The notes under the pieces are model-generated. The model made no database searches. It was given only the letters and a program-made list of their open reading frames with translations, and was not told where the DNA came from. Below, piece by piece: positions 2,210-7,355 of a DNA stretch of 64,000 bases; the stretch's first letter is position 1; the number at the start of each line of letters is the position of its first letter. Origin of the DNA: a virus (taxonomy: Duplodnaviria; Heunggongvirae; Uroviricota; Caudoviricetes). Both the position numbers and the translations under genes were made by a program. The stretch lies in IMG/VR virus record IMGVR_UViG_2721755728_000011. The stretch is one strand, 5' to 3'.

Positions 2210-2677
2210 TCATCGAAGGCATTGCGTCCTGATGTATTCCTGAAGCGTTCTCAGTGCTGTTTGGTCGCGGATAATTCCGTCCCGGATACCGAGAACGTTT
2301 CGTCCAGCAACTGGAGAGAGTTCGACGGTGGCATCATTGCCCATGCCGGAGGCGCTGGAGGTTTCGGCTGAGGATGGCACAGGGCATTTTCCTTTGACGA
2401 ACACCCGACCACCATTATCAAGCTTGCGCCGAAGAGCATCATTTTCAGCTTTCGCATCAGCTAACTCCTTCGTGTATTTAGCATCGAGTGCATCAGCAGA
2501 ACGCTGGCGCTGCTGCATGTCAGTAATGGTGGCGGTCGCCTGCTTCAGCTCACTGACTTTTTTATCTCGCTGTTCTTTGTAGGCGATGGCGTTATCACGG
2601 TAATGATTGACCGCCCACGACAGGCAGACGATGATGCAGATAACCAGAGCGGAGATAATCGCGGTTACTCTGCTCAT
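2210..2677 (-). CDS. Rz: Rz i-spanin
   Basis: N-terminal TM segment plus coiled-coil-like sequence; start taken at internal MSRV as in lambda/DLP12 Rz; overlaps endolysin end. Confidence 0.8.
2251..2457 (-). CDS. Rz1: Rz1 o-spanin lipoprotein, embedded in Rz in another frame
   Basis: Signal peptide with lipobox (MVVGC) followed by Pro-rich sequence; embedded architecture typical of Rz/Rz1. Confidence 0.7.
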
Positions 2678-3171
2678 TGTTGCCCCCACAAACAGACTTC
2701 ACGCTCAATCTCACGACGAGTCATCAGGCCTTTCCATTGCTTACCGCCAGCGTATATCCAGCGACGTAGCTGGTCACATGCGCCTTTGATATCGCCCTGG
2801 TTTATTTTGCGAAGAAGCGTCGATGTTCTGAAATTGCCAGCACCCACGTTGTAGACGAACGAGTAAAGAGCGCCGCGCGTTGTTTCCGGTATATCGACTT
2901 TGATGTACGGGTTAATTTGTCTGGCAACCGTGGCAAGGTCTTTATTCAGGAGGGCTTTGCATTCTGCTTCGGTATACGTTTTACCGAGCATGATGTCTTT
3001 TCCGGTGTGTCCGTGACATACAGTCCATACGCCAACGATATCTTTGTATGGTATGTAGCTGACACCTTCCAGGCCATCGTCACCACTTGGGCCAGTGATT
3101 AACACTGATGCTATAGCAATTGCTCCGCCACCAATAGCAGCAGCAACTGCTTTTCGTAATGATGGAGGCAT
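2674..3171 (-). CDS. SAR endolysin (phage 21 R-type lysozyme)
   Basis: 165 aa with N-terminal Gly/Ala-rich signal-anchor-release segment, same family as DLP12 rrrD; follows holin. Confidence 0.85.
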
Positions 3172-3386
3172 TATTCACCTCTCGCAGCCTTGCGCTTATC
3201 TTCTTTAATCTTGAAATAAAGGTTTGTCAGGTACGTCAGCAGGCCAAATACCAGGCTACCCAGCACACCTATTGCTGCCCACTGTGAGGGCGTGACTTTA
3301 TCGAGCAGCTGTAAAAACCAGTAACCGGCACTACCTGCTGAGGTGCCATAGGCGACACCCGTTGTTAACTTATCCATGGATTTCAT
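3171..3386 (-). CDS. Class II holin (S21 pinholin family)
   Basis: 71 aa from MKSMDK dual-start motif; two TM segments; C-terminal [13 protein letters not shown]; track ORF extends upstream via an alternative start. Confidence 0.85.
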
Positions 3387-3453
3387 AACCCCACCTCGCA
3401 GATGCGGGTGCTGTGTAATGGAAATAAAAAGGCCACCTGACGTGGCCACCAAA

Positions 3454-4506
3454 TTATTTCCCCACCAGCTCGTTTATCTCTTTCACTGTCTGGTTAAACC
3501 GCTCTGACTCAAGCTCAACACCTAAGGCCCGACGCCCCAGCGCCATTGCTGCTTTTATTGTGGAACCGGATCCCATAAAAAAATCAGCAACCAGATCACC
3601 AGGTCGACTACTGGCATTGATTATTTGCCTGAGCATATCCGCCGGTTTCTCACACGGATGTTTACCCGGGTAGAACTGAACGGGTTTATGCATCCAGACA
3701 TCGGTATAAGGCACGGAGACTGATACGGAGAAATAGCGCCGGAGAGATTTAAACTCATCCAGCAATTCAGAATATTTGCGATTCAGTGAATCATAAGATG
3801 CCACCAGCTGGTGGTGTGGTTGTTCCAGTTGTTGTTCCTGAAACTTCTCTGCCGCTATACGGGAAAACAGTGCCTGTAACTTCCGATAGTCAGCCTCATT
3901 CGGCAACTGCCACTGACTGGCACCAAACCAGTGGGAAACCATATTTTTCTTACCTGTGGCTTCGGCAATTTGTTTTGCCGTTATACCCAGTTCGGCACGA
4001 GCATCCCTGAAATACGAAATCAGCGGTGCCATTATGTGCTGTTTGAGTTCCCTTTCTTTTGCCGCATAGCCGTCACTTTTGCCGCGATATGGCCCCTGGT
4101 AATGTTCAGCAAACAGAACGCGCTCTGTGGCTGGAAAATATGCACGCAGACTTTCTTTATTACACCCATTCCAACGTCCGGACGGCTTCGCCCAGATGAT
4201 ATGGTTAAGCACGTTGAAACGTTCACGCATCATGATCTCAATATCAGATGCCAGGCGATGCCCACAGAACAGGTAAAGGCTTCCGGCAGGTTTTAACACC
4301 CGCCAGAACTGGGCCAGACAGTGGTCCAGCCACTTAAGGTAATCTTCGTCCCCTTTCCACTGATTGTCCCAGCCGTTGGGTTTCACCTTGAAGTACGGCG
4401 GATCGGTAACAATCAGGTCAATGGAATCATCAGGCAGGGACTGAATAAAATGCAGGCAATCAGCGTTGATTAAATCAACACTGTTTATTTTTACAGTATT
4501 TTTCAT
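3454..4506 (-). CDS. Orphan DNA methyltransferase (N6-adenine/N4-cytosine, beta-class)
   Basis: 350 aa with catalytic DPPY motif (VTDPPYF) N-terminal and AdoMet-binding FxGxG (FFMGSGST) C-terminal; no adjacent restriction gene. Confidence 0.8.
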
Positions 4507-4656
4507 GGATCAGTAAGCGTAACTCTGGTAGGCTCACTCTGCTTTTGCGCTAAAGCAGTGGGCCGTGGTTCGCTTGTGACCAGTAAGCATGAGCGAATGG
4601 CTGGCAGGTGCTACCAACACCCACCAGCCGCCCATTTTCACAGCAGGAAACCGCCA

Positions 4657-4884
4657 TTACTGGCAGCGTCTGAATTTATTCCCGTACCCGCCGTTATCCT
4701 TCGCCAGACCCGCCAGAACTAACTGAGTCAGTATTAACTGGCACCGGGCTTCGCTTACTCCGGTAGTTCTCGTCATCATGCGTGGCGTTACCCACTTGTC
4801 AGCAGGTAAGAAATGAAGGACTGCGGCGGCGGTTTCTGTCATATCTTGCTGTTTTAGCATGTCTTTTTCCCTTCTGGTTAACAT
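4657..4884 (-). CDS. Hypothetical small protein (75 aa)
   Basis: ORF between methyltransferase and lipoprotein moron; weak HTH-like segment; coding status uncertain. Confidence 0.3.
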   Translation of the reverse strand: MLTRREKDMLKQQDMTETAAAVLHFLPADKWVTPRMMTRTTGVSEARCQLILTQLVLAGLAKDNGGYGNKFRRCQ

Positions 4885-4981
4885 GACATACCAATAACTC
4901 TTGTCTAAAAAGCCAGCAAGATAAAAAGTCAGTATTCACGACCACCAGCGTGTTTACTGTACTGCACCAAGTTTACGGGTA

Positions 4982-5006
4982 CAAAAAACCCGCTCAGTGG
5001 CGGGTT
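4982..5006 (-). terminator. Intrinsic terminator downstream of lipoprotein moron
   Basis: Hairpin cccgc-tcagtg-gcggg followed by T-run on minus strand; near-identical copy of the hairpin at 5658..5688. Confidence 0.6.
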
Positions 5007-5083
5007 GCTATCACAGCTATATATTTACTTATTATGCCGTTACTAACATTTATCTTCGACATATAATCGAAAACAAGGTTTGC

Positions 5084-5500
5084 TTAAAACTCTGCTTTCA
5101 TTTTATCCGGGAATTTTTTATTTGCAGCATAATAACTACCAAGTACATAAGCGTTCATTTGCTGCTCTACATCAACCCGACATGCCGCACTAGAACAAGC
5201 TCCACTGATAAGCCCAAAAGAACTCCCTTTAGCAGAGAGATCAGCTTTGATTTCCTCTACAGTGTTTTTCCCCATAGCAACTACACACCCTGTCACAATA
5301 TATCTAGCTTTCACATCATCCATGCTAAGGATAGTAGTTTTCGCAATTTTGCTGTATCCATCATTTTTATAAACATCCATGGCAAACGCACGGCAATCTG
5401 TATAATACGGACTTGCTTTAACTTGCGAATACTCAGGTAATTTCATACCTGCACAACCAACTAAACAAAAACCTATCGCTGCTATTAATACCTTTTTCAT
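5084..5500 (-). CDS. Putative lipoprotein (AT-rich moron downstream of Q)
   Basis: Start at MKKVLIAAIGFCLVGCAG with lipobox LVGC; AT-rich codon usage; flanked by duplicated terminator hairpins. Confidence 0.6.
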   Translation of the reverse strand: MKKVLIAAIGFCLVGCAGMKLPEYSQVKASPYYTDCRAFAMDVYKNDGYSKIAKTTILSMDDVKARYIVTGCVVAMGKNTVEEIKADLSAKGSSFGLISGACSSAACRVDVEQQMNAYVLGSYYAANKKFPDKMKAEF

Positions 5501-5657
5501 TACAGTCATAACCTAGAAGCATCATTGAAACTAATTTATTAAATAACCATCGAGTTTCTGGAATACAGACGTTAACCATCTCTCCAAAATCTAAAAGATA
5601 ATAAGAAAAAATGTTTAACGCACCAATCCATTTCATAGTTTCATGAGACATCAGGCA

Positions 5658-5688
5658 CAAAAAAACCCGCTCAGCGGCGGGTTTTTGA
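5658..5688 (-). terminator. tR'-like intrinsic terminator about 100 bp downstream of Q (bidirectional hairpin)
   Basis: Hairpin cccgc-tcagcg-gcggg flanked by A-run and T-run; position matches lambda tR' relative to Q. Confidence 0.55.
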
Positions 5689-5789
5689 CATTTACCAACG
5701 GTAGACATACAAGGCCCATCGTTGAGAAAATCTTATCCATATTTTTTGAAAAATGCAAGTATCACGTCGACATCTTCGGCGAAAATTAT

Positions 5790-6584
5790 CTATCTTGTCA
5801 CTTTTCTCAATTGCGATTCAGCATACGCTTCTTCCTGCCAGCACTTTGTAACCAGTTTATTAATAACGTCTGCATATCCTTTGTACCACTGATAATCCGT
5901 CAGGTCCGGTACCAGTTTCTGGACATGATGCCGCGCCAGTGTGGTTGGTAAACGGCTAAACCGGTTGCCATTGCAACGCCCACAAATCTTATAAACAGGC
6001 ACACCATGAAGCCGGGTTCTTTTTTCATCCAGGACAATACCTTTACCCTTACACCCTCTGCACGCTGTGCTGACTTCTCCCTTACCATGGCAATGCTGAC
6101 ATAGTTCCTTCACCCACTCTTCCTTGATAACAGATTCCCCGCTTCTGGAGTGTTTCACCACTTCGCGCAATACATTATGAAATCCAGTACCAGCACAATG
6201 CTCACAGCGAGCCTTACTTGCCGCAGACCTGGAATAATCAGCAAAGGCAAAATTCACAAGGTAAGGGATGATCTGTAACCGGGTTTCTTCACTCAATTTG
6301 TTCAATGTCGGGTTATCCAGTGCCATCGCGTAATTGAGCAGACCTTCAATCGCAAATTGAGGATCCTGAACACCAACTTTTGCCAGGAATAAGGCAAACC
6401 CAAGCGGTGCTTTCGACTGCACCATCCCCTGCGCAGCCATCACATCCGTAATCGTTAAACCACCTGAGCCTGTCGCCGGTGCGTCATCGCTCAATTTTGG
6501 AGATTTTGGGGAGTAATATTTTGGTAAGGCTTCAAGGTTCATGCTCGTTCTCCACTTACGCCAGTACGCCAATTGCCAGCGCAC
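5790..6584 (-). CDS. quuQ: Late antiterminator Q, QuuQ type (lambda Q family, long form)
   Basis: Cys-rich motifs CEHCAGTG / CGRCNGN align with lambda Q zinc-finger region; probable true start at MNLEAL (6542). Confidence 0.8.
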   Translation of the reverse strand: MRWQLAYWRKWRTSMNLEALPKYYSPKSPKLSDDAPATGSGGLTITDVMAAQGMVQSKAPLGFALFLAKVGVQDPQFAIEGLLNYAMALDNPTLNKLSEETRLQIIPYLVNFAFADYSRSAASKARCEHCAGTGFHNVLREVVKHSRSGESVIKEEWVKELCQHCHGKGEVSTACRGCKGKGIVLDEKRTRLHGVPVYKICGRCNGNRFSRLPTTLARHHVQKLVPDLTDYQWYKGYADVINKLVTKCWQEEAYAESQLRKVTR

Positions 6585-6888
6585 GATCGATAAAACGAAA
6601 TATCAGCTCCAGCTGGGAGCCATACTTCTCTTCAAATGCCACGGTATCCGCATGCAGCTCGTCGTGATGCTTTCTGCACAAAGGCAACACAAAGAGGTCA
6701 TGCGCTTTTGTACCCATTCCACCCTGACCGTGGCCTATCAGGTGGTGGGGATCATCAGCAGGCTTTCCACAACATGCACACGGCTGTGTCTTAACCCAGC
6801 GCGTGTACTTTTCATTAACCCAGCGGCGACGTTTTGGGCGTAACATAAAAGACTCCGGCGACTCCGGATCCACTTTCAGCGCCAGCAC
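6556..6888 (-). pseudogene. 3' portion of ydfU/DUF968-like gene with HNH-like motif, 5'-truncated at inverted junction
   Basis: 110-aa ORF with CACCGK...HHLIGH...CRKHH motif; ends at Q start as ydfU does in Qin; mirror copy on plus strand at 6975..7355. Confidence 0.45.
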
Positions 6889-6974
6889 CTTTTTCGCTTT
6901 ATCCTGGATAATGCTGGTGGCAGGAACCGAAGGAACAAGGTCACTCTCCCGGGTGTACCCGGGAAAGTGACCTT

Positions 6975-7355
6975 GTGCCTTCGGTTCCTGCCACCAGCAT
7001 CATCCAGGATAAGGCGAAAAAGGTGCTGGCGCTGAAAGTGGATCCGGAGTCGCCGGAGTCTTTTATGTTACGCCCAAAACGTCGCCGCTGGGTTAATGAA
7101 AAGTACACGCGCTGGGTTAAGACACAGCCGTGTGCATGTTGTGGAAAGCCAGCTGATGATCCGCATCATCTGATAGGCCATGGTCAGGGTGGAATGGGTA
7201 CAAAAGCGCATGACCTTTTTGTGCTGCCTTTGTGCAGAAAACACCACGACGAACTGCATGCGGATACCGTGGCATTTGAAGAGAAGTATGGCTCCCAGCT
7301 GGAGCTGATATTTCGTTTTATCGATCGCGCACTGGCGATTGGTGTGCTGGCCTGA
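6975..7355 (+). pseudogene. 3' portion of ydfU/DUF968-like gene (mirror copy), 5'-truncated
   Basis: Protein identical over its shared length to the minus-strand copy at 6556..6888; no plausible native N-terminus. Confidence 0.45.

Follow-up and report, generated by a model that had tools for sequence, protein, structure and literature searches.

We describe here a 677-bp, AT-rich unit that carries a small lipoprotein gene and lies between the antiterminator gene Q and the lysis genes of an Escherichia coli lambdoid prophage, within the 64,000-nucleotide stretch IMGVR_UViG_2721755728_000011 (the whole of which is referred to as the window in what follows). The unit is present in some collinear prophages and absent from others, and its ends coincide with two copies of one terminator. 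We consider the cassette to be a moron of the ordinary kind, an independently acquired accessory unit in the Q-to-lysis interval, with borders that are unusually well defined, and would put the probability of this reading at roughly 70%. That the host element is an E. coli prophage is clear, since positions 4500-6600 are 100% identical to several complete E. coli chromosomes. Every gene of the Q-to-lysis region lies on the minus strand, where the order is Q (QuuQ/YdfT type), hairpin 2, the 141-aa lipoprotein gene, hairpin 1, a 67-aa gene, a DNA methylase gene and the lysis genes (coordinates in Table 1).

An earlier, sequence-only reading of this DNA had noticed an AT-rich lipoprotein gene with the lipobox LVGC and several cysteines in its mature part, placed directly after the tR'-like hairpin of a QuuQ-type Q and flanked by near-identical elements of about 25 bp, and all of these features were recovered. 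The gene is a 141-aa open reading frame (ORF) with four further Cys in a cassette of 36% GC, Q belongs to PF03589, and the Q-proximal copy of the element is hairpin 2, on the minus strand. The flanking elements form a direct repeat that a repeat search placed at 4983-5006 and 5660-5683 (24 nt, 23/24 identical) and that, read by eye, extends over 4977-5006 and 5653-5683 with about 28 of 30 positions alike and one indel (30 versus 31 nt). The hairpin 1 copy reads GGTAC-A6-CCCGCTCAGTGGCGGGTT and the hairpin 2 copy GGCAC-A7-CCCGCTCAGCGGCGGGTT, for a consensus of GG(T/C)AC, A6 or A7, and CCCGCTCAG(T/C)GGCGGGTT. With up to 3 mismatches allowed the 20-mer is found at 4 sites in the 64-kb window, against 0.03 expected, and its only exact sites there are hairpins 1 and 2. 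As minus-strand RNA both copies give G+C-rich stems of 7-10 bp with 6-nt loops, the predicted fold energies being -12.0 kcal/mol for hairpin 1 (then U6) and -13.9 kcal/mol for hairpin 2 (then U7). On the transcribed strand, then, each G+C-rich stem-loop runs straight into a U tract and, judged from the sequence, the two appear to be canonical intrinsic terminators oriented with late transcription. A consensus terminator scan flagged hairpin 1 and missed hairpin 2, probably because the stem of the latter runs into A/T tracts; the depositors of phage Ayreon annotated both hairpins as 'terminator'. Matches in Rfam were sub-threshold only and are due to the terminator shape.

In order to find sites that lack the cassette, a synthetic junction was built by joining window positions 4600-5006 to 5684-6100 and searched in 5,426 complete E. 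coli genomes, the set to which all genome counts below refer. At filled sites the query matches as two pieces about 1,500 bp apart, and at empty sites (H93, H95, H96) it matches as one continuous piece with 95.6-96.1% identity. Two of the empty loci, L004 and L005, with single-piece matches of 96.1% and 95.8%, have the annotated order Q, single hairpin, 67-aa gene, methylase, and in an alignment (A1) the single hairpin of the empty sites joins precisely the two flanks seen in the window. The cassette is carried by 214 of the genomes (∼4%), in 168 of them together with both window flanks, and a 160-bp empty junction occurs in approximately 186. Comparison with related prophages, by which it had been suggested that the unit might be delimited, thus does delimit it, through single-hairpin empty sites and collinear prophages with and without the cassette. 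Both alleles of the Q-side flank and both loop variants of the hairpin (T or C) are found in filled and empty sites alike, which argues for repeated exchange.

The borders can also be read in contexts other than that of the window. In a Salmonella prophage (L011) a homologue of the gene follows a different type of Q (PF06530/DUF1133), and the stretch homologous to the window runs from the hairpin (CCCGCCACTGAGCGGG and a U run) through the leader and the gene to a related terminator after the stop codon, the loop of which differs (CCCGCATTGCGCGGG). An O111:H8 prophage (L014) retains the cassette together with hairpin 1 but differs in everything beyond that hairpin (tRNA-Met and other genes). 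Many partial genome matches begin or end exactly at the hairpin, and among IMG/VR contigs one downstream flank type (D1) is joined through it to five upstream types and one Q-side type (U1) to three downstream types. The hairpin is a frequent joint between differing Q modules and downstream modules and, taken together, the borders and the flank joining indicate repeated gain, loss or exchange of the cassette, with crossover at the terminator. The portion of the sequence-only reading that proposed a terminator-bounded, inserted cassette is supported by the empty sites and by borders at the hairpins in independent contexts, while the further proposal that the terminator was duplicated on insertion is plausible, given a repeat similarity that continues about 5 nt past the hairpin, and unproven. 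In the same Salmonella prophage a remnant of the C-terminal end of the DNA methylase gene that lies downstream of the E. coli cassette was recognised by eye after the distal terminator (L011 5480-5810, no gene called over it), so that the downstream neighbourhood must once have been shared and has since been partly deleted.

By definition a moron is an obvious addition to a phage genome, of deviant GC content and with a promoter and terminator of its own (PMC3594210). The cassette is extra DNA with respect to collinear relatives, it deviates in base composition (36% GC as against 47% in Q, 48% in the methylase gene and 49.5% in the whole window, with flanks, comprising Q, the 67-aa gene and the methylase gene, at 47-50%) and it has its own predicted intrinsic terminator. 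In these respects it is like the morons of the HK97/HK022 definition (HK97 gene 15, lambda bor and lom), and it is like them too as a small single-gene unit within a phage operon, with a product that is predicted to be an envelope protein. It is unlike them in that its own promoter is a candidate only, expression from the prophage being something that we infer, and in that it is bounded on both sides by the same terminator, the upstream copy of which also serves as the Q-controlled tR'.

The interval between Q and the 67-aa gene is a moron hot spot with at least four alternative cargoes. A 176-aa protein (phrog_8867; no match in Pfam) is present there in 90 of the genomes, and a reverse-strand lipoprotein of 148 aa (MNKMTVLLLSATIISGC..., phrog_3152) in 185. 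The phrog_8867 cargo (L007 2885-3500, and L008) occupies the same site as window positions 5007-5683 and brings its own, unrelated terminator (ACCGCGTTCTCGCGGT and a U run, transcript strand) in place of hairpin 1. The phrog_3152 lipoprotein (L009 2915-3560) also has a terminator of its own and lies between a different Q, of 121 aa, and the same hairpin and 67-aa gene. Still other cargo follows a common 32-nt stretch in flank types U3, U38 and U39, and in Qin of K-12, which has a related Q and a variant hairpin, cspF/cspB stand in the place of the 67-aa gene. The window cassette itself is present in phages mEp460, Ayreon and PhiR47_1 and in Stx2c and Stx2k phages, its product being carried as a 'hypothetical protein' in mEp460, Ayreon and the Stx2c/Stx2k phages. 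In phiSTEC1575-Stx2k it is located upstream of the tRNA genes and stx2, and the same is presumably true of 15 unannotated Stx2c phages.

The lipoprotein gene is, in addition, mobile on its own. Members of its family are found in E. coli, Salmonella and Buttiauxella, all of the contexts inspected being phage or mobile-element DNA: downstream of Q, beside vapBC among the early genes of Rac-like prophages, and on a phage-plasmid, with a distant relative that lies amid transposases. In Rac-like prophages of Salmonella and other enterobacteria (L013, L136 and L137, at about position 5001) the homologue stands next to the vapBC toxin-antitoxin pair in an early/accessory region upstream of DUF1391, kilR and recE, without the hairpin-leader context found after Q. 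In Buttiauxella sp. WJP83 a homologue of 54% identity is carried on a 111-kb 'plasmid' with phage-like replication genes (L012 5001-5745), and 10 nt beyond it comes another small gene for a lipoprotein (99 aa, lipobox LSGC, several Cys), which suggests a two-gene unit in that element.

It might be argued that the cassette is ancestral to the Q module and that the empty prophages are deletions, produced by recombination or by replication slippage between the 24-30-nt direct repeats. Such repeats around some 650 bp are a classic deletion substrate, the empty sites have a single, hybrid-looking hairpin in which both loop variants, T and C, are encountered, and Salmonella has the same hairpin-leader-gene-hairpin layout at a synonymous divergence (dS) from the E. 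coli gene of more than 1, so that the two-hairpin arrangement is in all likelihood old. However, a GC content of 36% in flanks of 47-50% points to a foreign origin at some stage, the gene occurs alone in unrelated phage positions without these hairpins, and other Q-linked prophages have different cargo, or none, at the site. We regard deletion from an ancestral arrangement as possible, if rather unlikely, as the whole explanation; gain and loss of the cassette are not mutually exclusive.

The exact 20-nt hairpin is by no means restricted to this locus. It occurs in more than 120 IMG/VR stretches, which is a lower bound, and clustering of its flanks (137 sources: 133 loci and the window, with L135-L137 left out) gives at least 46 upstream and at least 47 downstream clusters on contigs of 42-65% GC. 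With so many flank contexts the second copy could have come by recombination rather than by duplication. One could go further and suppose that the two hairpins are independent copies of a common enterobacterial phage terminator, one belonging to the Q module as tR' and the other to the lipoprotein gene or to the downstream module, a notion with which the wide distribution of the 20-mer, the unrelated terminator of the 176-aa cassette at the same site and the differing distal loop in Salmonella all agree. Yet the two window copies are alike beyond the hairpin, with GGYAC preceding the A run, and this flank, shared with the E. coli and Salmonella copies and absent from unrelated occurrences of the 20-mer, argues for relation by descent. 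A related 3' tail (U-run, then GURYCYG) is likewise common to all four E. coli and Salmonella copies, and independent origin appears to us improbable.

In the unrelated phage contig L116 two identical 20-nt hairpins lie 1,428 bp apart in a tail/baseplate cluster (5674-7121) and bracket a 118-aa lipobox protein (LALTSC) and a 338-aa tail gene. This is a further instance, after that of the window, in which the hairpin flanks a small lipoprotein gene.

The constant spacing of the copies (677 or 676 bp in 14 of the 15 two-copy sources, that is, in 13 other loci and the window), together with a direct repeat around a discrete unit, could be taken as the footprint of a transposition-like or site-specific insertion, with the repeat as a target duplication or an att-like site. 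There is, however, no transposase, integrase or terminal inverted repeat in or beside the unit, the repeat is itself a functional-looking terminator, imperfect and common to many unrelated joints, and 24-30 nt is outside the usual range for target duplications. Such an origin is extremely improbable, and a transposon-style target duplication was rejected on the grounds that enzyme genes and terminal inverted repeats are both lacking.

In our preferred account, that of a moron exchanged by homology, recombination within the ∼24-30 nt shared by the terminators would move the cassette in and out and shuffle its flanks. Homologies of such short size suffice for phage Rad52-type recombinases. The joint is similar to the boundary or linker sequences at lambdoid mosaic joints in that a short conserved sequence stands between modules where homology starts or stops, and it is different from them in being a functional-looking terminator that is present twice and brackets a cassette. 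A more radical possibility, one that we believe to be very improbable, is that the hairpin is a portable joint specialised for recombination and recognised by its structure, which mobilises terminator-bounded single-gene cassettes among enterobacterial phages, the cargo here belonging to a new lipoprotein family that acts on the envelope in conversion or exclusion. By analogy such a joint could be likened to integron attC sites or to the targets of hairpin-recognising single-strand transposases, and it would explain both the identical 20-mer at dozens of unrelated phage joints and the L116 pair.

We turn now to the product of the cassette. The ORF encodes a protein that begins MTVMKKVLIAAIGFCLVGC followed by AG, the most likely start being the Met of MKK at 5500, and the mature protein would comprise ∼123 residues with an isoelectric point of 8.6. 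The N-terminus (MKKVLIAAIGFCLVGC, then AG) is a typical lipoprotein signal and agrees with the pattern [LVI][ASTVI][GAS]C. In an alignment of eight sequences, the most distant of 54% identity, G18, C19, C39, C75, C105 and C110 are invariant, and the ratio of nonsynonymous to synonymous substitution rates (dN/dS) is 0.07-0.18 in comparisons with homologues of 54-76% identity. The ORF is a real gene under strong purifying selection. Residues +2 and +3 are Ala and Gly, so that Asp at +2, and with it an inner-membrane retention signal, is missing. Under the +2 rule a lipoprotein of this kind is expected to sort to the outer membrane, and such sorting is probable here. The protein matches phrog_4748 (E=7.5e-91) and, weakly, phrog_8068, both of unknown function; no match was found in Pfam, NCBIfam, PADLOC or the annotated PHROG families, nor in a sequence profile search of the PDB. 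An AlphaFold2 (AF2) model, with a predicted local distance difference test score (pLDDT) of 79 and a predicted template modelling score (pTM) of 0.75, consists of four long helices and one short one, and comparison of the predicted bundle with the PDB and BFVD yielded no informative neighbour. The family is small, with 9 clusters among 5.8 billion proteins, and an exhaustive HMMER profile search of 1.84 billion representatives returned 8 proteins, all of them close family members or fragments; it is present on at least 1,000 contigs, labelled 'hypothetical protein' or 'Lipoprotein'. No literature on the gene was found under WP_000217632 or in papers on the Stx2c Q region.

The cassette sits within a recognisable pR'-tR' late-operon layout, in which a PF03589 Q is followed by a candidate pR' (conserved in K-12 Qin and in the empty-site prophages, alignment A1), by hairpin 2 and, further downstream, by holin and lysozyme genes. 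If transcription starts near 5723, as predicted, the product would be a short leader RNA (about 70 nt) that ends at hairpin 2, and this RNA is predicted to fold into two hairpins (-23.8 kcal/mol, z=-2.8). Lambda 6S RNA and StxS are short pR'-tR' transcripts of this sort. As in lambdoid and Stx phages, where stx, tRNA genes or a DNA methylase gene occupy the interval, the cargo lies directly after the Q-controlled terminator and before the holin gene, and an identical cassette is found upstream of stx2 in phiSTEC1575-Stx2k and, as far as can be presumed, in the 15 Stx2c phages. The arrangement is unlike the usual one in that the terminator sequence recurs after the cargo and in that the cargo is a lipoprotein gene and not a toxin or tRNA gene.

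Within this layout transcripts from pR' would, in the absence of Q, end at hairpin 2, and in the lysogen the cassette would be transcribed from a weak promoter in its own leader and transcription halted at hairpin 1, so that the methylase and lysis genes would stay silent. After induction Q-modified polymerase would pass both hairpins and the lipoprotein would also be made early in the late phase. The leader of the Salmonella homologue has TTGGTA-18 nt-TATCAT at the position aligned with the candidate cassette promoter. A 37-aa leader ORF, annotated in Ayreon and in the Stx2k phage, was set aside as spurious since the frame is not kept in the Salmonella leader, where there are indels.

An alternative is that the lipoprotein gene is simply the first late gene, silent in the repressed prophage, with a lytic role such as masking of receptors to prevent loss of progeny on debris, or modulation of envelope breakdown. 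The position of the gene would suit this, downstream of pR' and ahead of the lysis genes on the late transcript and in the same orientation, its candidate internal promoter is weak, and the Salmonella homologue is again directly downstream of a Q gene. Against such a role stand the homologues beside vapBC in early/accessory regions and on a phage-plasmid, from which it follows that placement in a late operon is not required; a distal terminator that makes most sense if the cassette is transcribed without Q; and the deviant GC content and present/absent pattern that are the signature of a moron. On balance we think a purely late function unlikely.

Returning to the moron reading, the product would be a lipoprotein processed by the Sec/Lsp pathway, probably sorted to the outer membrane, and would form a disulfide-stabilised helical bundle facing the periplasm. 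A role in conversion at the level of the envelope, by superinfection exclusion or receptor masking in the manner of Cor or Llp and without membership of their families, can be put forward tentatively, at odds that we place below even; it is a guess from the nature of the gene, a stand-alone accessory gene of temperate phages that encodes a conserved lipoprotein, probably disulfide-bonded and probably of the outer membrane. Like Cor (phi80, N15, HK022), Llp (T5) and Bor (lambda), the protein is a small accessory lipoprotein of temperate coliphages with a lipobox and without Asp at +2. Unlike them it is rather large (∼123 mature residues) and is predicted to be all-helical with two likely disulfides, and it bears no sequence relationship to them, in keeping with the lack of annotated family matches noted above. 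The genomic position is different as well, cor and llp adjoining tail or receptor-binding genes and bor being located after Rz. The assertion in the sequence-only reading that exclusion lipoproteins are typical of this position found no support in the material examined.

A number of points tell against the account that we favour and should be weighed with it. The ribosome-binding site before either ATG is poor, as read from the sequence, and the -35 element of the candidate cassette promoter matches the consensus at 3 of 6 positions, so weak that it falls below the threshold of the consensus scan, which misses the promoter for this reason. The exclusion or conversion role is without homology or fold support. 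The empty sites seen today may represent the ancestral state or may have arisen by deletion between the repeats, and the data are compatible with either direction of events. Finally, with an exact hairpin so widespread at phage joints, the identity of the two copies does not in itself prove duplication in place.

That the cassette exists in deposited phage genomes was already known, as were the moron concept and the Q-to-lysis hot spot. New here are the exact borders, the empty sites and alternative cargoes, and the part that one promiscuous terminator plays as joint. In practical terms the gain is modest and lies in placing the borders of a widespread accessory cassette (∼4% of complete E. 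coli genomes) to the base pair and in flagging a conserved, strongly constrained lipoprotein family as a candidate for exclusion or envelope phenotypes. The recurrence of one terminator sequence as a joint offers a convenient natural setting in which to study phage mosaicism driven by short homologies, and for Stx2c and Stx2k phages it follows that the path from pR' to the toxin genes contains two terminators instead of one.

Table 1. Features of the Q-to-lysis region, in order of transcription (positions in the window)
Feature	Positions	Strand	Basis
Late-gene antiterminator Q, QuuQ/YdfT type	5790..6542	-	PF03589 E=7e-54; DnaJ-type zinc finger
Candidate late promoter pR', TTGCAT-17 nt-TAAGAT	5730..5758	-	Read from sequence
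Hairpin 2, Q-proximal tR'-like predicted intrinsic terminator, upstream cassette border	5653..5686	-	Repeat; fold; start of homology in Salmonella L011
Present/absent unit, 677 bp: one hairpin copy, leader, lipoprotein gene, 77-bp spacer	5007..5683	-	Repeat start-to-start spacing of 677
Candidate cassette promoter, TTGGTG-17 nt-TATTAT	5598..5626	-	Read from sequence; inside 145-nt AT-rich leader
Lipoprotein gene, 141 aa	5084..5509	-	ORF; phrog_4748 E=7.5e-91; RefSeq WP_000217632.1
Hairpin 1, distal predicted intrinsic terminator, downstream cassette border	4977..5006	-	Repeat; terminator scan; fold; end of homology in O111:H8 L014
67-aa gene, first after cassette	4657..4860	-	phrog_331; mechanical ORF extends to 4884
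DNA methylase	3454..4506	-	PF01555
Holin	3171..3452	-	
Lysozyme	2674..3171	-	

The Q gene is annotated as ydfT or antitermination protein Q in the RefSeq records of the 100%-identical genomes, where the start gives a protein of 250 aa (the mechanical ORF extends to 6584), and at the DNA level it is ∼86% identical to quuQ (ydfT) of K-12 Qin. An ArcA-regulated small RNA, sRNA-17, has been placed in an mEp460-like prophage and occurs about as often as the cassette does (PMC7719688). Its 193-nt sequence, taken from the supplementary files, is absent from the window and the two are unrelated.

Beside Q, positions 6560-6954 and 6957-7351 form a 395-nt inverted repeat, 95% complementary, with arms 2 nt apart, each made up of the 3' portion of a different DUF968 allele and fused tail to tail. 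Beyond the left arm comes the QuuQ-type prophage (minus strand), and beyond the right arm a DLP12-like quuD-nmpC region (plus strand). The joint is found in none of the 5,426 genomes, and in strain C3 its two halves lie ∼2.67 Mb apart. A simple inversion between homologous genes gives a hybrid gene and not a palindrome, and the structure is therefore likely to be a chimeric join or an assembly artefact.

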